Positions 39,845 through 50,120 of a DNA stretch of 64,000 bases are shown one piece after another. The stretch is from NCBI RefSeq assembly GCF_003790525.1, contig NZ_CP033634.1. The stretch is one strand, 5' to 3'. Numbering within the stretch: the first letter of the stretch is position 1; the number at the start of each line of letters is the position of its first letter. The position numbers and the translations under genes are program-made. This stretch comes from Escherichia coli (GTDB lineage: Bacteria > Pseudomonadota > Gammaproteobacteria > Enterobacterales > Enterobacteriaceae). Under the pieces are notes generated by a model that ran no database searches, was not told the DNA's origin, and worked only from the letters and a program-made list of their open reading frames with translations.

Positions 39845-41271
39845 TGGCCAGTATCAACACCATTGTGAAACGCAAGCAGTACCTGTGGCTGGGGATTGTG
39901 GTTGTCGGTGCAGCCTCCGCGATTGGTGGGGCACTGTATCTGTCTGATGTGGACATGTCCGGTAACGGTGAGGCGGTGGCTGAACAGGAGCCTGTACCGG
40001 ATATGACCGGTGTGGTGGATACGACCTTTGATGACAAGGTGCGTCAGCATGCCACCACAGAGATGCAGGTGACGGCAGCGCAGATGCAGAAGCAGTATGA
40101 GGAAATCCGTCGTGAGCTGGATGTCCTGAACAAACAGCGCGGTGATGACCAGCGTCGTATTGAAAAGCTGGGACAGGATAATGCTGCCCTGGCAGAGCAG
40201 GTAAAAGCCCTGGGTGCAAATCCCGTCACCGCGACCGGTGAGCCAGTACCGCAGACGCCAGCCTCACCGCCCGGCCCGGAAGGCGAACCACAGCCAGGAA
40301 ACACACCCGTATCTTTCCCGCCGCAGGGCAGCGTTGCTGTTCCACCGCCGACGGCGTTTTATCCCGGGAATGGTGTCACGCCACCACCACAGGTGACGTA
40401 CCAGTCTGTGCCGGTGCCTAACCGGATACAGCGTAAGGTGTTTACCCGTAATGAGGGAAAACAGGGACCATCACTGCCGTACATTCCGTCAGGAAGTTTT
40501 GCGAAAGCCATGCTGATTGAAGGGGCGGATGCCAATGCCTCTGTCACCGGTAATGAATCCACGGTGCCGATGCAGCTGCGTATCACCGGCCTGGTGGAAA
40601 TGCCGAACAGCAAGACGTATGACGCAACGGGATGTTTTGTGGGTCTGGAAGCCTGGGGGGATGTGTCCAGTGAGCGTGCCATTGTACGCACCCGCAATAT
40701 CAGCTGCCTGAAGGACGGCAAAACTATTGATATGCCGATTAAGGGGCATGTCAGCTTCCGGGGTAAAAACGGTATCAAGGGCGAAGTGGTGATGCGTAAC
40801 GGCAAAATCCTCGGCTGGGCATGGGGCGCGGGATTTGTTGACGGTATCGGTCAGGGAATGGAGCGTGCCTCCCAGCCGGCTGTCGGGCTGGGTGCCACCG
40901 CTGCTTACGGGGCCGGCGATGTCCTTAAAATGGGTATCGGTGGCGGCGCATCGAAAGCCGCACAGACGCTCAGTGACTACTACATCAAACGTGCCGAACA
41001 GTATCACCCGGTGATACCGATTGGTGCGGGCAACGAAGTGACCGTGGTGTTCCAGGACGGCTTCCAGCTGAAAACCGTGGAAGAGATGGCGCTGGAACGC
41101 ACGCAGAGCAGAGCTGAAGAAGACAATCCGGAAAGTCCGGTTCCTGTTCCGCCATCGGCTGAAAGTCATCTTAACGGCTTTAATACTGACCAGATGCTGA
41201 AGCAGCTGGGCAACCTGAATCCGCAGCAGTTTATGTCCGGCAGCCAGGGAGGGGGCAACGATGGCAAATAA
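39844..41271 (+). CDS. traB: TraB (VirB10-like)
   Basis: 475 aa, proline-rich linker, gene order. Confidence 0.9.
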   Translation: MASINTIVKRKQYLWLGIVVVGAASAIGGALYLSDVDMSGNGEAVAEQEPVPDMTGVVDTTFDDKVRQHATTEMQVTAAQMQKQYEEIRRELDVLNKQRGDDQRRIEKLGQDNAALAEQVKALGANPVTATGEPVPQTPASPPGPEGEPQPGNTPVSFPPQGSVAVPPPTAFYPGNGVTPPPQVTYQSVPVPNRIQRKVFTRNEGKQGPSLPYIPSGSFAKAMLIEGADANASVTGNESTVPMQLRITGLVEMPNSKTYDATGCFVGLEAWGDVSSERAIVRTRNISCLKDGKTIDMPIKGHVSFRGKNGIKGEVVMRNGKILGWAWGAGFVDGIGQGMERASQPAVGLGATAAYGAGDVLKMGIGGGASKAAQTLSDYYIKRAEQYHPVIPIGAGNEVTVVFQDGFQLKTVEEMALERTQSRAEEDNPESPVPVPPSAESHLNGFNTDQMLKQLGNLNPQQFMSGSQGGGNDGK

Positions 41272-41845
41272 TATGTCACTCCGTCAGATATGCCATGCCA
41301 CCCGGTATGTTGTTGTCCGGGGCCTGTGTTGGTTGTTCTGGTGTCTGAAATACGCCGTCATTCTGCCACTGGCCACAATGGCCCTGATGGCTCTGTTTGT
41401 TTTATGGAAGGACAACACCACACCGGGAAAATTACTGGTTCAGGAAATTGACTTCGTAAGACAAACAGCCCCTGCCGGGCAGTTTCCTGTAAGAGAATGT
41501 TTGCCTTCTCTGCATGATCTTCCAGGAGCAGAAGAGAAAATCTGCCGTTACCGTGCTGCTGATGCTGCAGATTATGTCAGGGAGACTGACCGGTCACTGA
41601 TGCAACTGGTCACCGCATTCTGGGCAACGCTGGCACTTATGTATATGTCGTTTGCGGCAGGCACCGGGAAATATCCGGTGCTGCCCGGAAAAATGAAATG
41701 TGTCCGTGTGGCAACAGCAGATGAGCGTCTGAAGGAAGTTCTTGCAGAAGACACTTCCCTGCCGGGAAAAATCAGGGAATGCCATGTTTATTTCCCTGAT
41801 GACAGAACAATCAGAAACAACGGAGATAAAAATGAACATGCGTAA
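41261..41845 (+). CDS. traP: TraP
   Basis: 194 aa, gene order. Confidence 0.85.
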   Translation: MANNMSLRQICHATRYVVVRGLCWLFWCLKYAVILPLATMALMALFVLWKDNTTPGKLLVQEIDFVRQTAPAGQFPVRECLPSLHDLPGAEEKICRYRAADAADYVRETDRSLMQLVTAFWATLALMYMSFAAGTGKYPVLPGKMKCVRVATADERLKEVLAEDTSLPGKIRECHVYFPDDRTIRNNGDKNEHA

Positions 41846-42152
41846 TATTAATGTTATTACTGCCCGCTCTGTACCGGATAAAAGCGTATCAGATGATTTT
41901 ATGCATGCTGTTCTCAGTAACTGCACCACAAGAATCGTACTTCCTGCACCGAAGGAATTCAGTTCTGAATCATTGCCGCACAATTTTAATATGGCTGCTG
42001 TCGGTGTGATGAAGAAGGGTATGTCGATGAGCTTATTTTCTTCTCCGGGGCATATTGTGGTTGCCGGACAATCCGGTGGCGGAAAATCTGTTCCGGTGAA
42101 AGAACTAATCGACAGAATTATTCAGAAATATAAGGAACCCTTCGATGAATAA
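41832..42152 (+). CDS. trbD: TrbD (start uncertain)
   Basis: ORF between traP and trbG; internal ATG at 41832 chosen. Confidence 0.5.
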   Translation: MNMRNINVITARSVPDKSVSDDFMHAVLSNCTTRIVLPAPKEFSSESLPHNFNMAAVGVMKKGMSMSLFSSPGHIVVAGQSGGGKSVPVKELIDRIIQKYKEPFDE

Positions 42153-42396
42153 GCTGGTTTCTGATGGCAGCGTCAAAAAAATAAATTATCCGGTGCTGTA
42201 TGAATCCGGAATAACACCTCCGTTATGTGAAGTCAGTGCGCCAGAACCTGATGCGGGGGGGAAACGCATTGTGGCATATGTTTATAAATCATCACGGAAT
42301 ACGGTTTTTGAAAATCCTGACATTGTAAAAACCTGTACGGTCAGGGATTTGAAGAATGATTTTGTGAACTGCGATGAGAAAGGTGAGGGACAATGA
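42145..42396 (+). CDS. trbG: TrbG
   Basis: 83 aa, gene order. Confidence 0.8.
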   Translation: MNKLVSDGSVKKINYPVLYESGITPPLCEVSAPEPDAGGKRIVAYVYKSSRNTVFENPDIVKTCTVRDLKNDFVNCDEKGEGQ

Positions 42397-42908
42397 AACA
42401 GATTTCTTTATTTATTCCTCTGCTGGGGACCTTATTACTTTCCGGCTGTGCCGGAACCAGTACGGAATTTGAGTGTAACGCCACCACATCCGATACCTGT
42501 ATGACGATGGAGCAGGCCAATGAGAAGGCCAAAAAACTGGAGCAGTCCTCAGAAGCAAAGCCGGTTGCGGCATCACTGCCGCGCCTGGCTGAAGGGAACT
42601 TCCGGACAATGCCGGTGCAGACCATTACCGCGACCACTCCGTCCGGCAGCAGACCTGCGGTGACAGCACATCCGGAGCAGAAACTGCTGGCACCACGCCC
42701 GCTGTTTACCGCTGCCCGGGAAGTGAAAACGGTTGTTCCGGTCAGTTCAGTTACGCCGGTAACACCTCCTCGTCCGCTAAGAACGGGTGAGCAGACGGCA
42801 GCATTATGGATAGCGCCTTATATTGATAACCAGGATGTTTATCATCAGCCATCCAGCGTGTTTTTTGTTATTAAACCGTCTGCGTGGGGAAAGCCACGTA
42901 TTAATTAA
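42393..42908 (+). CDS. traV: TraV lipoprotein
   Basis: Lipobox LLLSGC, 171 aa. Confidence 0.9.
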   Translation: MKQISLFIPLLGTLLLSGCAGTSTEFECNATTSDTCMTMEQANEKAKKLEQSSEAKPVAASLPRLAEGNFRTMPVQTITATTPSGSRPAVTAHPEQKLLAPRPLFTAAREVKTVVPVSSVTPVTPPRPLRTGEQTAALWIAPYIDNQDVYHQPSSVFFVIKPSAWGKPRIN

Positions 42909-43042
42909 CTGGCCCTGAAGTTGTATATCAGCCGGCAATGTCGGCGGGCTTTCTGTATTCAAAATCTGCCTGTAAAACGAGTGCCCTGTGCGTGAAAAGG
43001 GATGGGCGGTAGCGTGTCAGAACATGTCGGGAGGAATATTCC

Positions 43043-43264
43043 GTGAGTGATGAAGCCGATGAAGCATATTCAGTGACAGAACAACTGACCATGACAGGAA
43101 TAAACCTGATACGCCAGAAAATAAATGCTCATGGTATTCCTGTTTATCTCTGTGAAGCATGCGGAAATCCTATTCCGGAAGCCCGGCGGAAAATATTTCC
43201 CGGTGTGACGTTGTGCGTTGAATGTCAGGCGTATCAGGAAAGGCAGAGGAAACACTATGCATAA
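43043..43264 (+). CDS. traR: TraR (DksA/TraR C4 zinc finger)
   Basis: CEACGNPIPEARRKIFPGVTLCVECQ. Confidence 0.9.
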   Translation: MSDEADEAYSVTEQLTMTGINLIRQKINAHGIPVYLCEACGNPIPEARRKIFPGVTLCVECQAYQERQRKHYA

Positions 43265-43730
43265 ATCAGAAGCTGAAAAAATAGATTCTATTCTGGATGA
43301 ACATCAACAGATATATCGCAGACATAACCGAATAGATAACATCCTGGCGTTTTGTGCGTGTATTGCATGGGTTCCCTGTATTATTGCTGCGTTCGGCGTT
43401 GATGGTATATATCTGAAAATACTGTTTGCGGTCCTTGCCTGCTGTGGTGCGGTATGCTTTTTTATTTTCTTCTTCACCCTCCTGCCGGAATCACTCATGG
43501 TCCTCAGCCGTCAGAGCCTGCTTCAGCTTATGCGTCTGACTGAAGACGTACCGGATGCGAGACAGGAACTGCTTAACCGTCTGCTGTCCGGTAAAAAACT
43601 GACTGGTCGGGATGAACAGGATATCCGGCGTCTCTGGCAGGAGAAAGTGGATGCAATGCAGGAGTCTGCCACCCGTCAGCGTGAACAGGATACTATTCGG
43701 AAGTTTACTGAAGGGAATAAATCCGAATGA
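43257..43730 (+). CDS. Hypothetical membrane protein, cargo ORF between traR and traC
   Basis: ATG at 43257 with upstream purine-rich RBS; two predicted TM segments. Confidence 0.55.
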   Translation: MHKSEAEKIDSILDEHQQIYRRHNRIDNILAFCACIAWVPCIIAAFGVDGIYLKILFAVLACCGAVCFFIFFFTLLPESLMVLSRQSLLQLMRLTEDVPDARQELLNRLLSGKKLTGRDEQDIRRLWQEKVDAMQESATRQREQDTIRKFTEGNKSE

Positions 43731-43778
43731 GAATCTGCAGTGTTTTATGACCTCATAAGTTAACTGAAGGGATATTCA

Positions 43779-44024
43779 GTGATTAATATACAAGCGGAGA
43801 TAATAAAGAATGCATACCTTTATTTTTCTTGTGCTGATAAAAATATTAACGGTGGCGGAAGCTGGAATATTACACCCATGCCAAATACGGACGTATGCGT
43901 GCAGGTTCTTCGGACAATCGAGTCACACGGAGGCAGGGGATTTGGAAATACAGGGGAATGTATTGAAGTTAAAACAAATAAACCTTTGAACAACGTGATG
44001 GATACACTGAATGGGGGGCAATGA
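43779..44024 (+). CDS. Hypothetical protein (81 aa), cargo ORF
   Basis: ORF in AT-rich intergenic block within the tra operon. Confidence 0.4.
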   Translation: MINIQAEIIKNAYLYFSCADKNINGGGSWNITPMPNTDVCVQVLRTIESHGGRGFGNTGECIEVKTNKPLNNVMDTLNGGQ

Positions 44025-44051
44025 GTGCTTACTGCTTCAAAGGAAAATGAA

Positions 44052-44414
44052 ATGAAGTCGATATATTTAGAATCTGTTCTGGCTTTTATATTTGTTGGCG
44101 TTATGGCTATGTTGATATGTGGTCTTTTTTACAATGACTACCTTGAGCAACAACCTGCAACACCAGAACAACTGAGAGAGATTACACAGGATATCCCCTG
44201 TGCAGCAGAAGCATTTAAGGAAGCTATTAAGTCTGACACATCTGATTATCAGCCTGAACCTTTAAGTCTTGGTAAGGCAAAAGAGCTTGCATCAGCGTGT
44301 AGAGAAAGAAACGAAATGGCAGAGGTGAAACGGGTAAGAGAAAATGAGCGCAATAAGATTCGCGAAAAACAAATTCAGGCATTAAATGATGCTCATTCAG
44401 TAAAGGAACGTTAA
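44052..44414 (+). CDS. Hypothetical membrane-anchored protein (120 aa), cargo ORF
   Basis: RBS AAGGAAA before ATG at 44052; N-terminal TM helix. Confidence 0.5.
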   Translation: MKSIYLESVLAFIFVGVMAMLICGLFYNDYLEQQPATPEQLREITQDIPCAAEAFKEAIKSDTSDYQPEPLSLGKAKELASACRERNEMAEVKRVRENERNKIREKQIQALNDAHSVKER

Positions 44415-44539
44415 TCCTGGTTTCCTGTTAAAAGCCTCCATCTCTTATTTGTGCTGTGGTTTCAGGAATGGCACTGCGTGATATATCCACGGCCACAGAC
44501 TGATATTTTCCTTTTTTAAACGCACTAAGGAATACGCAT

Positions 44540-47170
44540 ATGAGTAATAACCCACTTGAGGCCGTCACTCAGGCGGTTAACTCCCTCGTCACAGCACTGA
44601 AACTGCCTGACGAATCAGCAAAGGCCAATGAAGTGCTGGGCGAAATGAGCTTCCCGCAGTTCAGCCGTCTGCTGCCGTACCGTGATTACAACCAGGAATC
44701 CGGTCTGTTCATGAATGACACCACGATGGGCTTTATGCTGGAAGCCATTCCCATCAATGGGGCGAATAAGTCCATTGTGGAGGCACTCGATCACATGCTG
44801 CGCACCAAACTGCCGCGCGATATTCCGTTGTGTATCCATCTGATGTCCAGTCAGCTGGTTGGTGACAGGATTGAATACGGGCTGCGTGAGTTCTCCTGGT
44901 CAGGTGAACAGGCTGAACGGTTTAACGCCATTACCCGGGCCTATTATATGAAAGCGGCAGCGACACAGTTTCCGCTGCCGGAGGGGATGAATCTGGCCCT
45001 GACCCTGCGCCATTACCGGGTGTTTATCTCGTACTGTTCTCCTTCGAAGAAAAAAAGCCGGGCCGACATTCTGGAAATGGAAAACCTGGTGAAAATCATC
45101 CGGGCGTCGTTACAGGGGGCCAGTATCACCACACAGACGGTGGATGCACAGGCCTTTATCGATATTGTCGGGGAGATGATTAACCATAACCCGGACTCCC
45201 TGTACCCGAAAAGACGTCAGCTGGACCCGTATTCTGATCTGAATTATCAGTGTGTGGAGGACAGTTTTGATCTGAAAGTCCGGGCTGATTACCTGACGCT
45301 GGGCCTGCGTGAGAACGGCAGGAACAGCACGGCCCGCATCCTGAATTTCCATCTGGCCCGTAACCCGGAAATCGCCTTCCTGTGGAACATGGCCGACAAC
45401 TACAGCAACCTGCTGAACCCGGAACTGTCCATCTCCTGTCCGTTCATCCTGACGCTGACTCTGGTGGTGGAAGACCAGGTGAAAACCCACAGCGAAGCCA
45501 ACCTGAAGTACATGGACCTGGAGAAAAAGTCGAAGACCTCCTATGCCAAATGGTTTCCGTCCGTGGAGAAAGAGGCGAAGGAGTGGGGGGAACTGCGTCA
45601 GCGGCTGGGCTCCGGTCAGTCCTCCGTGGTGTCCTACTTCCTCAACATCACAGCATTCTGCAAGGACAATAATGAAACGGCGCTGAAAGTGGAGCAGGAC
45701 ATCCTGAACAGCTTTCGTAAAAACGGTTTTGAGCTGATTTCACCGCGCTTTAACCACATGCGCAATTTCCTGACCTGCCTGCCCTTTATGGCCGGGAAAG
45801 GGCTGTTTAAACAGCTGAAAGAGGCCGGAGTGGTTCAGCGCGCAGAGAGCTTTAATGTGGCCAACCTGATGCCGTTAGTGGCGGATAACCCCCTGACACC
45901 GGCAGGTCTGCTGGCACCCACCTACCGTAACCAGCTGGCGTTTATCGATATTTTCTTCCGGGGGATGAATAACACCAATTACAACATGGCGGTCTGTGGC
46001 ACCTCCGGGGCCGGTAAAACCGGGCTGATACAGCCACTTATCCGCAGCGTGCTGGACTCCGGGGGCTTTGCCGTGGTGTTCGACATGGGGGATGGCTACA
46101 AGTCCCTGTGTGAGAACATGGGGGGCGTATATCTGGACGGTGAAACCCTGCGCTTTAACCCGTTTGCGAACATCACCGATATTGACCAGTCAGCGGAGCG
46201 TGTCCGCGACCAGCTGTCGGTGATGGCCAGCCCCAACGGTAACCTGGATGAAGTGCATGAAGGTCTGCTGCTGCAGGCGGTCAGGGCATCATGGCTGGCC
46301 AAAGAGAACAGGGCTCGTATTGATGACGTGGTGGATTTCCTGAAAAACGCCAGTGACAGCGAGCAGTATGCCGGGTCACCGACTATCCGCAGCCGTCTGG
46401 ACGAAATGATTGTGCTGCTTGACCAGTACACTGCCAACGGCACTTACGGCCAGTATTTTAACTCTGATGAGCCGTCCCTGCGGGATGACGCAAAAATGGT
46501 GGTGCTGGAGCTGGGCGGACTGGAAGACCGTCCGTCACTGCTGGTTGCGGTGATGTTCTCCCTGATTATCTACATCGAGAACAGGATGTACCGCACGCCG
46601 CGTAACCTCAAGAAACTGAACGTTATTGATGAAGGCTGGCGTCTGCTGGACTTCAAAAATCACAAGGTCGGTGAATTTATTGAGAAAGGCTACCGTACGG
46701 CCCGCCGTCATACCGGTGCCTATATCACCATCACACAGAACATCGTCGACTTTGACTCTGACAAGGCCTCCAGTGCTGCCCGCGCGGCATGGGGTAACTC
46801 CTCCTACAAAATTATCCTCAGACAGAGTGCGAAGGAGTTCGCGAAATACAACCAGCTGTATCCGGACCAGTTCCAGCCACTGCAGCGCGACATGATTGGT
46901 AAGTTTGGTGCGGCCAAAGACCAGTGGTTCAGTTCCTTCCTGCTGCAGGTGGAAAACCATTCCTCCTGGCACCGCCTGTTTGTGGACCCGTTAAGCCGCG
47001 CCATGTACAGCTCTGACGGCCCGGATTTTGAGTTTGTGCAGCAGAAACGTAAAGAGGGGCTGAGTATTCATGAGGCGGTGTGGCAGCTGGCGTGGAAGAA
47101 GTCAGGGCCGGAGATGGCTTCGCTGGAAGCCTGGCTGGAAGAACATGAGAAATACAGGAGTGTTGCATGA
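44540..47170 (+). CDS. traC: TraC, VirB4-family ATPase
   Basis: 876 aa; Walker A GTSGAGKT. Confidence 0.95.
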   Translation: MSNNPLEAVTQAVNSLVTALKLPDESAKANEVLGEMSFPQFSRLLPYRDYNQESGLFMNDTTMGFMLEAIPINGANKSIVEALDHMLRTKLPRDIPLCIHLMSSQLVGDRIEYGLREFSWSGEQAERFNAITRAYYMKAAATQFPLPEGMNLALTLRHYRVFISYCSPSKKKSRADILEMENLVKIIRASLQGASITTQTVDAQAFIDIVGEMINHNPDSLYPKRRQLDPYSDLNYQCVEDSFDLKVRADYLTLGLRENGRNSTARILNFHLARNPEIAFLWNMADNYSNLLNPELSISCPFILTLTLVVEDQVKTHSEANLKYMDLEKKSKTSYAKWFPSVEKEAKEWGELRQRLGSGQSSVVSYFLNITAFCKDNNETALKVEQDILNSFRKNGFELISPRFNHMRNFLTCLPFMAGKGLFKQLKEAGVVQRAESFNVANLMPLVADNPLTPAGLLAPTYRNQLAFIDIFFRGMNNTNYNMAVCGTSGAGKTGLIQPLIRSVLDSGGFAVVFDMGDGYKSLCENMGGVYLDGETLRFNPFANITDIDQSAERVRDQLSVMASPNGNLDEVHEGLLLQAVRASWLAKENRARIDDVVDFLKNASDSEQYAGSPTIRSRLDEMIVLLDQYTANGTYGQYFNSDEPSLRDDAKMVVLELGGLEDRPSLLVAVMFSLIIYIENRMYRTPRNLKKLNVIDEGWRLLDFKNHKVGEFIEKGYRTARRHTGAYITITQNIVDFDSDKASSAARAAWGNSSYKIILRQSAKEFAKYNQLYPDQFQPLQRDMIGKFGAAKDQWFSSFLLQVENHSSWHRLFVDPLSRAMYSSDGPDFEFVQQKRKEGLSIHEAVWQLAWKKSGPEMASLEAWLEEHEKYRSVA

Positions 47171-47553: not shown

Positions 47554-48182
47554 GATGCCGGGGGCTGATTGCCCTGCTGATATGGGGGCAGAGTGTGGCC
47601 GCCGCCGATCTTGGTACCTGGGGCGATCTGTGGCCGGTAAATGAGCCGGACATGCTGACGGTGATCATGCAGCGCCTGACGGCACTGGAGCAGTCCGGTG
47701 AGATGGGCCGGAAAATGGATGCCTTTAAGGAGCGGGTGATCCGCAACAGTCTGCGGCCCCCTGCCGTGCCCGGTATCGGACGCACGGAGAAATACGGCAG
47801 CCGGTTGTTTGACCCGTCCGTCAGACTGGCTGCGGATATCCGGGATAACGAAGGGCGGGTGTTTGCCCGTCAGGGTGAAGTGATGAATCCATTGCAGTAT
47901 GTTCCTTTTAACCAGACGCTGTATTTCATCAATGGCGATGATCCGGCGCAGGTGGCCTGGATGAAACGCCAGACGCCGCCCACACTGGAGAGCAAAATTA
48001 TCCTCGTGCAGGGCAGTATCCCGGAGACGCAGAAGTCTCTGGACAACCGTGTTTACTTTGACCAGAACGGTGTGCTCTGCCAGCGCCTCGGCATTGATCA
48101 GGTCCCGGCACGGGTGAGCGCCGTTCCCGGCGATCGCTTCCTGAAGGTGGAATTTATTCCGGCAGAGGAGGGCAGAAAATGA
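47550..48182 (+). CDS. traW: TraW
   Basis: 210 aa with signal peptide, starts at MRCRGLIALL; the longer ORF-track entry begins upstream. Confidence 0.85.
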   Translation: MRCRGLIALLIWGQSVAAADLGTWGDLWPVNEPDMLTVIMQRLTALEQSGEMGRKMDAFKERVIRNSLRPPAVPGIGRTEKYGSRLFDPSVRLAADIRDNEGRVFARQGEVMNPLQYVPFNQTLYFINGDDPAQVAWMKRQTPPTLESKIILVQGSIPETQKSLDNRVYFDQNGVLCQRLGIDQVPARVSAVPGDRFLKVEFIPAEEGRK

Positions 48183-49171
48183 AGCGAAGCCTGTGGCTGC
48201 TGATGTTATTCCTTCTCGCCGGTCATGTCCCTGCAGCGTCTGCGGATTCTGCCTGTGAGGGGCGTTTTGTAAACCCGATCACGGATATCTGCTGGAGCTG
48301 TATTTTCCCGCTCTCGCTGGGCAGTATCAAAGTCAGTCAGGGTAAGGTCCCCGACACGGCGAACCCGTCGATGCCCATTCAGATTTGTCCGGCACCGCCG
48401 CCGCTGTTCAGGCGTATCGGGCTGGCCATTGGTTACTGGGAGCCGATGGCGCTGACGGACGTCACCCGATCACCGGGATGCATGGTTAACCTGGGCTTCA
48501 GCCTGCCGGCTTTTGGTAAAACGGCACAGGGAACGGCGAAAAAGGATGAGAAGCAGGTGAACGGGGCGTTCTATCACGTTCACTGGTACAAATACCCGCT
48601 GACGTACTGGCTTAACATCATCACATCGCTGGGCTGTCTGGAAGGTGGTGACCTGGATATCGCTTATCTTTCTGAAATCGACCCCACCTGGACGGACAGC
48701 AGCCTGACCACCATTCTCAATCCGGAAGCTGTCATCTTTGCCAATCCGATAGCACAGGGGGCCTGTGCAGCAGATGCCATTGCCAGCGCCTTTAATATGC
48801 CTCTCGATGTTCTGTTCTGGTGTGCCGGTTCGCAGGGCAGTATGTACCCGTTCAATGGCTGGGTGAGTAATGAGTCCAGTCCGTTGCAGTCCTCCCTGCT
48901 GGTCAGTGAACGCATGGCGTTCAAGCTGCACCGTCAGGGCATGATTATGGAAACCATCGGGAAAAATAACGCCGTCTGTAATGAATATCCGTCCCCAATC
49001 CTGCCCAAAGAACGCTGGCGTTACCAGATGGTGAATATGTACCCGGACAGCGGACAGTGCCACCCGTTCGGGCGCAGTGTGACCCGCTGGGAGACGGGAA
49101 AAAATCCGCCCAACACAAAGAAAAACTTCGGCTACCTGATGTGGCGTAAACGTAACTGTGTGTTCCTGTAA
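48179..49171 (+). CDS. traU: TraU
   Basis: 330 aa, signal peptide, gene order. Confidence 0.9.
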   Translation: MKRSLWLLMLFLLAGHVPAASADSACEGRFVNPITDICWSCIFPLSLGSIKVSQGKVPDTANPSMPIQICPAPPPLFRRIGLAIGYWEPMALTDVTRSPGCMVNLGFSLPAFGKTAQGTAKKDEKQVNGAFYHVHWYKYPLTYWLNIITSLGCLEGGDLDIAYLSEIDPTWTDSSLTTILNPEAVIFANPIAQGACAADAIASAFNMPLDVLFWCAGSQGSMYPFNGWVSNESSPLQSSLLVSERMAFKLHRQGMIMETIGKNNAVCNEYPSPILPKERWRYQMVNMYPDSGQCHPFGRSVTRWETGKNPPNTKKNFGYLMWRKRNCVFL

Positions 49172-49199: not shown

Positions 49200-49511
49200 A
49201 TGAAGGTGGGGGTAATAAGAAATAAGCACGCAGAGGACTTCAGAAAAATATGTCTTCTGTTTATCCGGTTAACGAGCAATGTATTAAAACTGTTTCCTTT
49301 TGCTATGGTGATGTGCTCTGTGGTGTGGTTTTATTTTTGCCCTGAACATATTCTCTCAGACATTGTTAACGACTGGCACGATGCAGATACACTGGAAAAA
49401 ATACGGATTGTCAGACTGTATCTGAAGACGTCTTTTATTCTGACAGTGGTGGGCGTTGTTATTTCATATCTTTCTTCAGATAAGTTTATGCCCGTTAAGC
49501 GCAGGAAATGA
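49200..49511 (+). CDS. Hypothetical membrane protein (103 aa), cargo ORF between traU and trbC
   Basis: RBS AAGAGGA before ATG; AT-rich. Confidence 0.5.
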   Translation: MKVGVIRNKHAEDFRKICLLFIRLTSNVLKLFPFAMVMCSVVWFYFCPEHILSDIVNDWHDADTLEKIRIVRLYLKTSFILTVVGVVISYLSSDKFMPVKRRK

Positions 49512-49573
49512 GTCTGGCGGTTCTCATAAATATAACCGTGTGTGCATGTGTACAATATAAGTAAAGGTGCGTT

Positions 49574-49945
49574 ATGGGATTTTTCTCGTTTTTACGAAAG
49601 ATAAGTAATAAAGAAAAAGGGGTGGTTATCTATGAGAAGCAGTGGTTCTCACTGCTGGAAAAGGTGAGTGCTTTTGATGAGGTCAGACAATGGGCTGAAA
49701 GTAATGGTGGAGCATATTATCCTCTGCTGGAGTGTCGTCGGCTTACAGACAGTGAAGATGTCAGGAAATCAGAGGATATACTGAACCGACTGGAGTTTAT
49801 TGACAGAAGATTTCGGGAATTCATCAGCATTATGTCTGAACATATTAATAATGATAAAACTAAATCCATGTGGGAGAGGGAATTGTCTGAATATCCACCG
49901 GAAAAATATACCAGGTCCGGAGAGAGGGAGAACATCTGTCATTAA
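49574..49945 (+). CDS. Hypothetical protein (123 aa), cargo ORF between traU and trbC
   Basis: ORF in AT-rich block. Confidence 0.5.
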   Translation: MGFFSFLRKISNKEKGVVIYEKQWFSLLEKVSAFDEVRQWAESNGGAYYPLLECRRLTDSEDVRKSEDILNRLEFIDRRFREFISIMSEHINNDKTKSMWERELSEYPPEKYTRSGERENICH

Positions 49946-50120
49946 AAAATTACGGTGATGATATTACTCTGAACAGAGATACCGCCGTGGCTACGGTGCA
50001 GATTACTGTCAGCAGAAAATGCATTACTCAGGAAGAAATGGATGAATTATATGCATTGTCTGAGAGACTGAAAGAAAAGTGCGCCGGTAATTAAATTATA
50101 TCACTGTGCCGGGAGATGAT

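Follow-up and report, generated by a model that had tools for sequence, protein, structure and literature searches.

The yfiA-yfiB-yfiC genes between traR and traC of an R100-type F-like plasmid as putative auxiliary envelope factors of the mating apparatus

The genes yfhA and yfiABC of plasmid R100 have already been named; they are conserved in R100 and pKF3-70 and absent from F (PMC2762410, PMC5052281, PMC2797631), and yfiABC has been given as part of the R100 backbone (PMC5052281). For R100 (NR1), the names used in UniProt for the R100-1 entries are 'conjugative transfer protein' and OrfH. In pKF3-70, ORF46-48 are the counterparts of the genes studied here, and the published predictions describe proteins of 115 aa (one transmembrane segment and a signal-peptide call), 72 aa (neither) and 158 aa (transmembrane) (PMC2797631). 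The literature searched gives no function for these genes, and the pEC958 TraDIS paper and a conjugation screen paper are silent on them.

The DNA analysed here, the window, is a stretch of 64,000 nucleotides from Escherichia coli (contig NZ_CP033634.1). Judged by sequence, the three ORFs between its traR and traC genes are R100 yfiA, yfiB (OrfH) and yfiC, and are therefore not new genes. With a probability of about 60%, we read them as the yfiA-yfiB-yfiC set of R100-type F-like plasmids, old and dispensable residents of the tra operon whose products would serve the mating apparatus as envelope proteins in an auxiliary role.

The gene set between traR and traC

An earlier note, made from the sequence alone, had described three AT-rich ORFs of 157, 81 and 120 codons between traR and traC, two of them with predicted membrane segments. 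All three are in the ORF listing (Table 1), and GC contents of 46.7% (ORF1), 40.7% (ORF2) and 39.4% (ORF3) versus 54.5% for traC bear out the composition (traB, 57.5%; whole window, 50.4%). A Kyte-Doolittle scan over 19 residues placed the membrane segments in ORF1, with two hydrophobic stretches (~27-48 and ~52-77), and in ORF3, with one (~4-27); none was found in ORF2. At the upstream boundary, the traR product matches Pfam PF01258 (zf-dskA_traR) with E=1.8e-13.

Table 1. Features of the traR-traC interval and its borders, in window positions.
Feature	Position	Strand	Size	Remarks
traR	43043..43264	+	73 aa	DksA/TraR zinc-finger RNA polymerase-binding regulator; upstream boundary; traR in identical plasmids
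ORF1 (yfiA)	43257..43730	+	157 aa	ATG 43257; mechanical ORF from TTG 43218
ORF2 as read in the window	43779..44024	+	81 codons	GTG start; frameshift fusion
Native yfiB start (ATG)	43810..43812	+		Conserved; its frame differs from that of the window's yfiB body
A5 homopolymer run	43839..43843	+		-1 frameshift site in yfiB; DNA alignment and direct reading
ORF3 (yfiC)	44052..44414	+	120 aa	ATG 44052; GTG 44025 would give 129
Spacer ahead of traC	44415..44539	+		Holds the traC ribosome-binding region ACTAAGGAAT, common to F
traC	44540..47170	+		VirB4-type ATPase; downstream boundary; ORF listing and annotation of identical plasmids

The products are similar to the R100 proteins over their full length, with identities of 97% (ORF1 and yfiA), 83% (ORF2 and OrfH, over the common body, which is in the same frame after the A-run) and 81% (ORF3 and yfiC), and at 90% clustering they group with these proteins or in clusters that bear the name YfiC or OrfH. 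They occupy the same traR-to-traC site in the order and on the strand of R100, and the start of yfiA overlaps the stop of traR. The reading frames of yfiA and yfiC are intact; that of yfiB is not. Database annotation of these genes is hypothetical throughout, beyond the UniRef name 'YfiC protein' for ORF3, the source names YfiC, OrfH and YfhA, and a Prokka label yfiA for ORF1. The pKF3-70 predictions match the window genes, since size and membrane character agree. Several differences from R100 were found. R100 carries an extra truncated paralogue, yfhA, which arose from a tandem duplication of ~405 bp including the 3' end of traR and is absent from the window; the window yfiC allele encodes 120 aa, compared with 115 aa in R100, owing to an insertion of 5 residues; and the window yfiB, unlike that of R100, carries a -1 frameshift. 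BLASTP found no paralogue of the three proteins among the window ORFs of at least 40 aa. A weak match of ORF3 (E=0.003) to an IS-related window ORF was rejected as a charged stretch of low information, and the kinship of YfiB and YfiC suggested by the 90% clusters was not real homology, the alignment having ~24% identity and large gaps.

The 81-codon ORF2 is present as an open frame, as the earlier note had it, but it is not the native gene. The homopolymer run in yfiB is A5 in the window and A6 in R100 and CP132064 by DNA alignment, and ORF2 reads as a short upstream GTG mini-ORF fused by this frameshift to the yfiB body. In pGZM7d, a RefSeq plasmid that is 100% identical, PGAP calls the equivalent of 43810-44024 a 'frameshifted' pseudogene. 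The native N-terminus, MHTFIFLVLIK..., is nearly invariant across the E. coli and Klebsiella homologues. The A5 allele was found in about 68 of ~1,142 E. coli-type plasmids; inactivation of yfiB here and in these ~6% of E. coli-type copies counts against an envelope function of the set.

The ATG of yfiA lies inside ATGCATAA, overlapping the traR stop codon (TAA 43262-43264), with a GAGGA Shine-Dalgarno sequence 7 nt upstream. yfiC is preceded by an AAGGA Shine-Dalgarno sequence, and its alternative GTG start abuts the ORF2 stop. Between 42800 and 44700, no promoter-like site was detected (0 versus 4.1 expected by chance), a plus-strand terminator was absent, one minus-strand terminator-like site occurred at chance level, and Rfam gave no RNA family. 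For a Klebsiella IncFII(K) plasmid, published expression values are 7-14 for the hypothetical genes of the traV-traC interval, compared with 11 for traC and 22 for traV (PMC6286996). Given the ATGCATAA overlap with traR, the lack of an internal promoter or terminator and the Klebsiella expression values, yfiABC lie within the long tra operon and are probably co-transcribed with it.

Distribution and history of the slot

The supposition that the ORFs are not core tra genes of all F-like plasmids is borne out by F, which lacks all three and in which traC directly follows traR, and by 2,246 PLSDB records with the same short junction, compared with 1,169 for the long form. The yfiABC-bearing long form is found in about 1,170 PLSDB plasmids and in 854 of 5,426 complete E. 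coli genomes (~16%), and roughly one third of E. coli-type F-like plasmids carry the set. The content of the slot varies accordingly with lineage: F holds a relic only, a pSLT-like plasmid two ORFs, the window three, R100 four and a Klebsiella IncFII(K) plasmid six. In Klebsiella IncFII(K) resistance plasmids, homologues of yfiB and yfiC also occupy this slot, between traV and traC (2,344 and 2,225 Klebsiella records, respectively); these plasmids keep the two genes but lack an annotated traR and a clear homologue of yfiA. The Klebsiella ORF in the first position was not accepted as a YfiA homologue at just 21% identity, and an 87-aa ORF of pSLT-type plasmids proved unrelated to YfiC. Since the frames are open in thousands of plasmids (intact in >1,000 of E. 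coli type and >2,000 of Klebsiella) and the dN/dS of yfiB is close to that of traC, the three are more than chance ORFs.

The short junction of F retains a trace of the longer form. In F, the flanking genes and the traC ribosome-binding sequence are as in the window, and the ATGCATAA overlap is still there. The 159-bp spacer that follows holds a frameshifted remnant of yfhA/yfiA type (MHKSVAEHSDLIPDEHEWIFRKQKSLYM..., then GNGALITGIPFMATAFLALFFN and a stop), in which approximately the first 28 codons of such a gene are recognisable; yfiB and yfiC are absent, and the right-hand end of the deletion is the traC ribosome-binding region, ACTAAGGAAT. Because the spacer still encodes this remnant, the short junction of F represents a deletion and not an unoccupied insertion site. 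The sequence comparison thus shows yfiABC as old residents lost from F by deletion, not recent insertions. The textbook F junction is a deletion scar, which makes F derived and puts the R100-type plasmids nearer to the ancestral operon.

The dS relative to Klebsiella is 1.3-1.9 for yfiB and yfiC and 1.6-1.7 for traC, indicating at the sequence level that yfiB and yfiC diverged in step with TraC. A repeat search for hallmarks of mobile cargo returned repeats of 12-18 nt at chance level and no sign of an IS or a cassette, and the ORF listing contains no transposase ORF between traV and traC. The earlier idea that the slot takes variable cargo therefore stands for non-core genes that vary between lineages; their uptake as cargo is not supported, in view of the F relic, the Klebsiella yfiB and yfiC genes, the kept overlap and the lack of repeats or IS. 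Given that relic, the slot sharing and TraC-like dS of Klebsiella and the missing mobile-element hallmarks, the sequences suggest that loss, duplication and allele exchange account for the variation better than insertion does.

Predicted products and alternative readings

The function of the ORFs had been left open in the earlier note, and domain searches agree, with no family match in Pfam, NCBIfam, PADLOC or PHROGs. For the three proteins and R100 YfhA, these libraries returned sub-threshold noise only, the PADLOC defence models gave no family for any of the three at E<=1, and neither a curated family (Pfam-A, NCBIfam, PHROGs) above threshold nor a significant fold match to a solved structure was obtained; sequence-profile searches of the PDB yielded nothing meaningful. 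That all library searches were empty weighs against the envelope-factor reading.

YfiA is conserved in an N-terminal EKIDxILDEH motif and a C-terminal helical RLLSGKxLTGRDE domain, and its membrane hairpin is hypervariable. The AF2 model (pLDDT 76) has helices at 5-47, 51-75, 85-97, 99-111 and 117-155, and the protein is predicted to enter the inner membrane as a hairpin of two helices, its N- and C-terminal domains both lying in the cytoplasm. Between allelic types, dN/dS is ~1.3 in the hairpin and 0.14-0.28 in the C-domain; the alleles comprise at least four types of hairpin, and some are mosaic. In one plasmid, TraC is 89% and TraR 63% identical but the ORF1 homologue only 25%, and even there the overlap with traR is retained.

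This pattern brings to mind TraS of F-like plasmids, a small hydrophobic inner-membrane entry-exclusion protein that is encoded in the tra operon and whose sequence is highly divergent between near-identical plasmids. The likeness to YfiA is an analogy of evolutionary pattern only, with no homology and a different location in the operon. In another reading, unlikely in our estimate, yfiABC would be conflict or specificity genes inside the tra operon with no part in building the apparatus: they might provide a second exclusion-like function, protect against pilus-specific phages or interfere with competing plasmids, the YfiA hairpin conferring specificity and the C-domain serving as effector or adaptor. 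The hairpin ratio, the diversity of hairpins, the divergence of ORF1 beside a conserved TraC, the tandem paralogue yfhA in R100, the AT-richness of the genes, and the occurrence of the family in three unrelated types of conjugation system and near toxin-antitoxin genes in an accessory region are all in its favour. It is weakened by the lack of a match to PADLOC or other defence families, by the slow evolution of yfiB, which equals that of core tra genes, and by the loss of the genes, with no obvious penalty, from the F-type plasmids, which are the majority; moreover, fast change of membrane helices could be neutral drift under a constraint on hydrophobicity only. The fast divergence of YfiA fits a conflict or specificity gene and an assembly factor equally.

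Three features define the YfiA/YfhA/YafA family here, and ORF1 has them all: an EKIxxIxxxHE motif at the N-terminus, a hydrophobic hairpin of two helices, and the RLLSGKxLTGRDE domain at the C-terminus. It is a narrow family (112 representative clusters among 1.84 billion proteins in a profile search), and VirB-type and IncI/K conjugation loci also contain members, there too next to regulators. The IncI/K yafA gene and the VirB-type homologues keep the family features at 23-42% identity and, like ORF1, are on conjugative elements directly downstream of a small regulator. That regulator is not TraR: yafA follows yafB, of the FinO/ProQ family, and the VirB-type homologues stand at the operon head after NusG-like and ribbon-helix-helix-like genes. 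Neither has yfiB or yfiC alongside. A 74-aa ORF upstream of the VirB-type members was rejected as a TraR-like zinc finger, being ribbon-helix-helix-like with no cysteine motif, and the VirB-type member P0431 had no PLSDB match by tblastn. Members also lie outside T4SS operons, namely yafA by the FinO/ProQ gene and a homologue in an accessory region with HicAB. This placement, together with a divergence far faster than that of the neighbouring genes, speaks against an envelope factor of the mating apparatus.

It is conceivable, though quite unlikely, that YfiA/YfhA/YafA is an unrecognised conjugation-associated membrane family whose genes accompany the regulatory genes that head T4SS operons, and do so in three mating systems unrelated to each other (F-type after TraR, VirB-type after the NusG-like and ribbon-helix-helix genes, IncI/K after FinO/ProQ). 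With its conserved cytoplasmic domain and fast-evolving hairpin, it might then be a sensor or adaptor that couples the expression of transfer genes to the state of the envelope or of mating, or it might confer specificity when plasmids are in conflict with one another or with phages; YfiB and YfiC would be conserved F-type partners. A related proposal, in which YfiA would be the regulatory partner of the gene upstream, a membrane-anchored link of envelope or T4SS status to TraR or another adjacent regulator, with yfiB and yfiC as unrelated passengers, is very unlikely. The traR overlap, retained in very divergent F-like lineages and in the F relic, and the position of the family right after the ribbon-helix-helix-like ORF and NusG-like gene in VirB-type operons and the FinO/ProQ-family gene in IncI/K agree with it, but the three upstream regulators are unrelated, making a single binding mechanism unlikely, and Klebsiella IncFII(K) has yfiB and yfiC with neither an annotated traR nor a clear yfiA. 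Structural and biochemical work on TraR of F, which acts on RNA polymerase with no YfiA present, also counts against it (PMC7555446).

YfiB, in its conserved 71-aa form, gave an AF2 model with a pLDDT of ~76-77 and is probably a small cytoplasmic alpha/beta protein. No lipobox was seen by eye, and the hydrophobic N-terminus is modelled as beta-strand 1, in the core. Foldseek returned no significant match in the PDB; the best resemblance, to a PII-like or ferredoxin-like alpha/beta fold (TM ~0.6, E>0.05), was rejected as non-specific. The dN/dS of yfiB is 0.13-0.31 versus 0.08-0.16 for traC, and by this measure its constraint is as strong as that of core transfer genes.

YfiC consists of a predicted N-terminal membrane anchor, a helical C-terminal domain of ~90 aa with conserved cysteines C50 and C83, and a charged tail. 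SignalP is positive for the pKF3-70 homologue (PMC2797631); in the window protein, no lipobox was seen by eye and the 23-residue hydrophobic stretch is anchor-like. The sequence points to an N-in/C-out anchored protein whose helical domain is probably periplasmic and probably contains a disulfide bond. The Klebsiella homologue is 42% identical, conserves the cysteines and has its membrane helix preceded by a long, charged extension at the N-terminus. The dN/dS of yfiC is 0.28-0.39 relative to Klebsiella and 0.7-0.9 among E. coli alleles, and this weak constraint among E. coli alleles counts against the envelope-factor reading.

It is very unlikely that the three genes are remnants in decay that serve no function today and are tolerated since the region is transcribed anyway: the deletion of the whole set in F-type plasmids, which is the majority state, the yfiB frameshift in the window, the truncated duplicate yfhA of R100 and the high ratio among E. 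coli yfiC alleles point that way, but reading frames are intact over synonymous divergence above 1.3 and in the >1,000 E. coli-type and >2,000 Klebsiella plasmids, yfiB and the yfiA C-domain are constrained (0.13-0.31 and 0.14-0.28), and the AF2 models of YfiA and YfiB are confident.

Auxiliary envelope factors and comparison with the trb genes of F

Since F lacks all three genes, yfiABC are dispensable for transfer, and because F conjugates well without them, any role in the mating apparatus would be modulatory at most. Under the preferred reading as auxiliary envelope factors, the products may tune the assembly or behaviour of the pilus/T4SS machinery, or may lessen the envelope stress and vulnerability that come from it, a benefit that would matter in natural hosts and not in laboratory matings.

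The value of these findings lies mainly in annotation: the ORFs are the yfiABC genes of R100, and the middle gene is a pseudogene in the window copy. They leave the current understanding of conjugation unchanged and make three modest additions to the literature, namely the F junction as a scar, the keeping of yfiB and yfiC in the Klebsiella IncFII(K) slot, and a yfiA family beside the regulators of three conjugation systems. A phenotype for any yfiABC gene would close a minor gap that has long existed in the map of a plasmid family of clinical importance. Because its constraint is as strong as that of core transfer genes, yfiB is a reasonable first target for knockout.

The trb genes of F (TrbI, TrbE, TrbF, TrbA, TrbJ and others) encode short proteins, often crossing the inner membrane once or twice. 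The genes lie among essential tra genes and are transcribed together with them; each is dispensable by itself, and their presence varies among F-like plasmids. No similarity of the trb genes to any window ORF was found, and their likeness to yfiABC is a functional analogy, not homology. Like these small non-essential trb genes, yfiABC would supply auxiliary factors of the envelope, produced alongside the pilus/T4SS machinery.

The traR-traC interval and its R100 counterparts

The interval at 43257-44414 lies within an F-like tra operon in which every gene is on the plus strand, and the same gene order is annotated in public plasmids with an identical stretch. Three ORFs were present, in the interval and with the lengths that an earlier note had given. 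Their GC contents (46.7, 40.7 and 39.4% for ORF1, ORF2 and ORF3, against 50.4% over the window, with traC at 54.5% and traB at 57.5%) bear out the AT-richness described there. The membrane segments expected in two of the three were recovered by a 19-residue hydropathy scan, which placed membrane-length stretches at about residues 27-48 and 52-77 of ORF1 and at about residues 4-27 of ORF3, and none in ORF2. The start of ORF1, with a GAGGA Shine-Dalgarno sequence 7 nt upstream, overlaps the traR stop codon in ATGCATAA, which implies that yfiA would be translationally coupled to traR; ORF3 is preceded by an AAGGA Shine-Dalgarno sequence.

Genes in and around the traR-traC interval
Feature	Position	Strand	Length	Remark
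traB	39844-41271	+		followed by traP, trbD and trbG
traV	42393-42908	+		after trbG, before traR
traR	43043-43264	+		just 5' of the three small ORFs
ORF1 (yfiA)	43257-43730	+	157 codons	ATG start
ORF2	43779-44024	+	81 codons	GTG start
ORF3 (yfiC)	44052-44414	+	120 codons	ATG start
traC	44540-47170	+		directly after the three small ORFs

E. coli plasmid pGZM7d carries the 1.6-kb region at 100% identity, and the region was matched by 3,553 PLSDB records, with at least 80% coverage in 1,169. The interval occurred in 854 of 5,426 complete E. coli genomes and was plasmid-borne at 1,019 of 1,022 places. R100 has four ORFs between traR and traC (137, 157, 72 and 115 aa), of which the second, third and fourth were 97%, 83% and 81% identical to ORF1, ORF2 and ORF3, respectively. 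Publicly, the first R100 ORF is named YfhA or "conjugative transfer protein" (O32534), the third OrfH (O32536) and the fourth "YfiC protein"; ORF1 is labelled yfiA by Prokka. R100 "yfiABC" and "yfhA" have been treated as backbone genes (PMC5052281), YfhA is reported to have no counterpart in F (PMC2762410), and pKF3-70 ORFs of 158, 72 and 115 aa, mostly membrane proteins, are conserved in R100 and not in F (PMC2797631). Since these three papers cover the R100 and pKF3-70 counterparts, the yfiABC genes are already catalogued, so far with no functional assignment. In keeping with the earlier note, which assigned the ORFs no function, searches of the interval proteins against Pfam, NCBIfam, PADLOC and PHROGs profiles returned nothing beyond noise, and PDB sequence-profile searches gave no match. 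yfiABC is a real but ordinary finding, a known uncharacterised accessory set of R100-type plasmids with one pseudogene here.

Three further features of the tra region were observed. Between traU (48179-49171) and trbC (50106-50759) there is another AT-rich slot (49200-49945; GC about 0.40), which encodes a 103-aa protein with hydrophobic segments (49200-49511) and a 123-aa soluble one (49574-49945); R100 has a single hypothetical 101-aa ORF there. At 53445-54437, trbE and traF form one continuous 330-codon ORF, whereas the two genes of R100 are distinct and overlap in different frames; when aligned, the window and R100 differ shortly before the traF start by an indel of 2 nt and several substitutions, and the continuous ORF may be a true fusion or merely an open upstream frame. 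TrbD (41742-42152) is of the long R100 type (DUF2689, E=2.6e-13), that of F being much shorter; it carries a Walker-A-like motif, GQSGGGKS, and residues 71-133 gave weak FtsK/SpoIIIE and AAA matches (E=2e-4 to 0.3).

The frameshift in yfiB

DNA alignment revealed a single consequential difference in ORF2: in the run at 43839-43843 the window has five A's (A5), where R100 and CP132064 have six (A6). In the A6 form the gene begins at the counterpart of ATG 43810 and its product reads MHTFIFLVLIK-NINGGGSW..., an N-terminus that is nearly invariant among E. coli and Klebsiella homologues. In the window, ATG 43810 is out of frame with the yfiB body and GTG 43779 reads through into it, while in A6 plasmids this GTG opens only a 23-codon mini-ORF. 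By this comparison, ORF2 is a frameshifted yfiB, and the RefSeq record of pGZM7d likewise has the equivalent of 43810-44024 called a "frameshifted" pseudogene by PGAP. Of about 1,142 E. coli-type copies, those in about 68 plasmids had the contiguous A5 allele in a tblastn search with the 81-aa form.

The AF2 model of the conserved 71-aa YfiB (mean pLDDT 77, pTM 0.61) has a beta-beta-alpha-beta-alpha fold with residues 2-13 as the first strand. On this model, the hydrophobic N-terminus, which the frameshift replaces, would be a structural strand and not a signal peptide. As a separate observation, the mini-ORF GTG in A6 plasmids has a good AAGGGA Shine-Dalgarno sequence (window 43779-43850). 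Because the mini-ORF also overlaps the yfiB ATG and yfiB's own Shine-Dalgarno sequence is weak, A6 yfiB may be translationally coupled to the mini-ORF.

Variation of the slot among plasmids

Plasmid F has 159 bp from traR to traC, with no annotated gene in the spacer. The spacer frame overlapping the traR stop translates as MHKSVAEHSDLIPDEHEWIFRKQKSLYM-RREMAR followed by a stop, and the next frame as ...GNGALITGIPFMATAFLALFFN followed by a stop; yfhA/yfiA family members read MHKSDAEKIDLILDEHERVFRKQRPLYMALGNGALITGISCV..., so that F retains the first ~50 codons of a yfhA/yfiA-type gene in frameshifted form. The deletion ends at ACTAAGGAAT, the traC ribosome-binding sequence common to F and the window. 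In the F spacer (3575-3741), this relic is seen as a 34-codon ORF, MHKSVAEHSDLIPDEHEWIFRKQKSLYMRREMAR, overlapping the traR stop. At least 80% of the F-type junction was covered in 2,246 of 3,547 matching records, vs about 1,170 with the long form.

In R100 (2677-3162), yfhA is a tandem duplicate of yfiA, the copies lying about 405 bp apart. Its 3' end copies that of traR (...QETQRKHYA and stop): 20 nt from the end of traR are part of the repeated junction, which gives YfhA the C-terminal residues of TraR, QRKHYA. This points to an origin by unequal recombination at the traR/yfiA junction.

The slot of a pSLT-like Salmonella plasmid holds a yfiA homologue (50% identity) and an unrelated 87-aa ORF. 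In Klebsiella IncFII(K) KPC plasmid p11AY2069_B_KPC (1839-4194), no traR is annotated and six small ORFs separate traV from traC. The second is homologous to yfiB (58% identity when aligned with the window, 65% when compared with the conserved form) and the fifth to yfiC (42%). For the other four (136, 103, 134 and 132 aa), no relatives were detected among the slot genes of E. coli-type plasmids, nor any Pfam family. By tblastn, yfiB homologues occurred in 3,602 plasmids, 2,344 of them from Klebsiella; for yfiC the numbers were 3,457 and 2,225. Between E. coli and Klebsiella types, dS was 1.3-1.7 for yfiB, 1.4-1.9 for yfiC and 1.6-1.7 for the adjacent 5' part of traC; the divergence of yfiB and yfiC has thus paralleled that of the operon.

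The flanks of the interval showed no repeats, IS elements or recombinase genes. Given the F relic, the same-slot Klebsiella homologues, the matching dS, the lack of flanking repeats and the R100 duplication, slot variation is best explained by loss, duplication and allele exchange among resident genes. The earlier note's variable slot holds insofar as content differs among F, pSLT-like, R100 and Klebsiella lineages, and the three genes, missing from F, are not conserved across all F-like plasmids. Inserted cargo is not supported: F's short junction is a deletion scar, and "resident accessory genes, lost in F" is to be preferred to "variable cargo slot" as a description.

Predicted products, selection and role

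The YfiA AF2 model (pLDDT 76) has a hairpin of helices 5-47 and 51-75, then helices 85-97, 99-111 and 117-155. The very short inter-helix loop and the basic residues ahead of the first membrane helix suggest that both YfiA ends are cytoplasmic. In YfiC, an acidic stretch comes after a single hydrophobic helix at the N-terminus, the Klebsiella homologue has a 28-residue charged extension ahead of the helix, and cysteines C50 and C83 are invariant in alignments; these features fit a protein anchored N-in/C-out whose helical domain is periplasmic and probably disulfide-bonded. YfiB is probably cytoplasmic, without a membrane segment. Fold searches gave no specific match. A scan of 42800-44700 found no sigma-70-like promoter, plus-strand terminator-like site or Rfam match. 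In a Klebsiella IncFII(K) transcriptome, values were 7-14 for five hypothetical traV-traC genes, 11 for traC and 22 for traV (PMC6286996), which, for that other plasmid, is consistent with co-transcription of slot genes with the tra operon.

Pairwise Nei-Gojobori dN/dS was 0.13-0.31 for yfiB, 0.08-0.16 for the traC 5' part, 0.09-0.19 for traR, 0.34-0.80 for whole yfiA, and, for yfiC, 0.70-0.90 among E. coli alleles and 0.28-0.39 against Klebsiella. Within yfiA, the membrane hairpin (residues 25-80) reached about 1.3 between allelic types, in strong contrast to 0.14-0.28 for the C-terminal domain (residues 81-129). In 26 aligned members, the conserved ends (MHKSxxEKIDxILDEH at the start, LLxLMRLTEDxPDxRQELLNRLLSGKKLTGRDE near the end) enclose mosaic alleles and at least four hairpin types that look unrelated. 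In one F-like plasmid, TraC and TraR were 89% and 63% identical to those of the window, and the overlapping ORF1-family gene only 25%.

The ORF1 (YfiA/YafA) family is narrow: from 1.84 billion representative proteins, a profile search retrieved only 112 clusters, many of them fragments. Members lie in F-like operons, always immediately 3' of traR; in VirB-type T4SS operons, 3' of a NusG-like gene and a 74-88-aa ribbon-helix-helix-like ORF and followed by SLT/VirB1, VirB3 and VirB4; in IncI-gamma/K plasmids as "yafA" (27-42% identity), right after the FinO/ProQ-family gene yafB; and in an accessory region with HicAB modules. Two uncharacterised VirB-type operons from enterobacterial assemblies (L012, 3179-8492; L015, 1894-7130) begin with the NusG-like gene, the small ribbon-helix-helix-like ORF and a family member, and their DNA has almost no match in PLSDB. 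The family's repeated tie to conjugative elements and a small upstream regulator is new, as far as the searched literature goes.

The hypervariable hairpin, the R100 paralogue and the spread of the family over different conjugation system types would suit conflict or specificity genes, a reading we consider unlikely. That YfiA partners TraR, or other regulators encoded upstream, in a regulatory role seems less probable still. Decay of functionless ORFs is similarly improbable, given purifying selection on yfiB and the yfiA C-domain.

Beyond the identity, operon position, dispensability and ancestry of yfiABC, which are established here, we infer a role: with a probability of roughly 0.6, they are old, dispensable tra accessory genes. 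Two proteins of the inner membrane and a small cytoplasmic one would be produced alongside the pilus/T4SS machinery and may modulate this machinery or the envelope burden it causes. As accessory tra-operon genes, yfiABC can be likened to the small trb genes of F.
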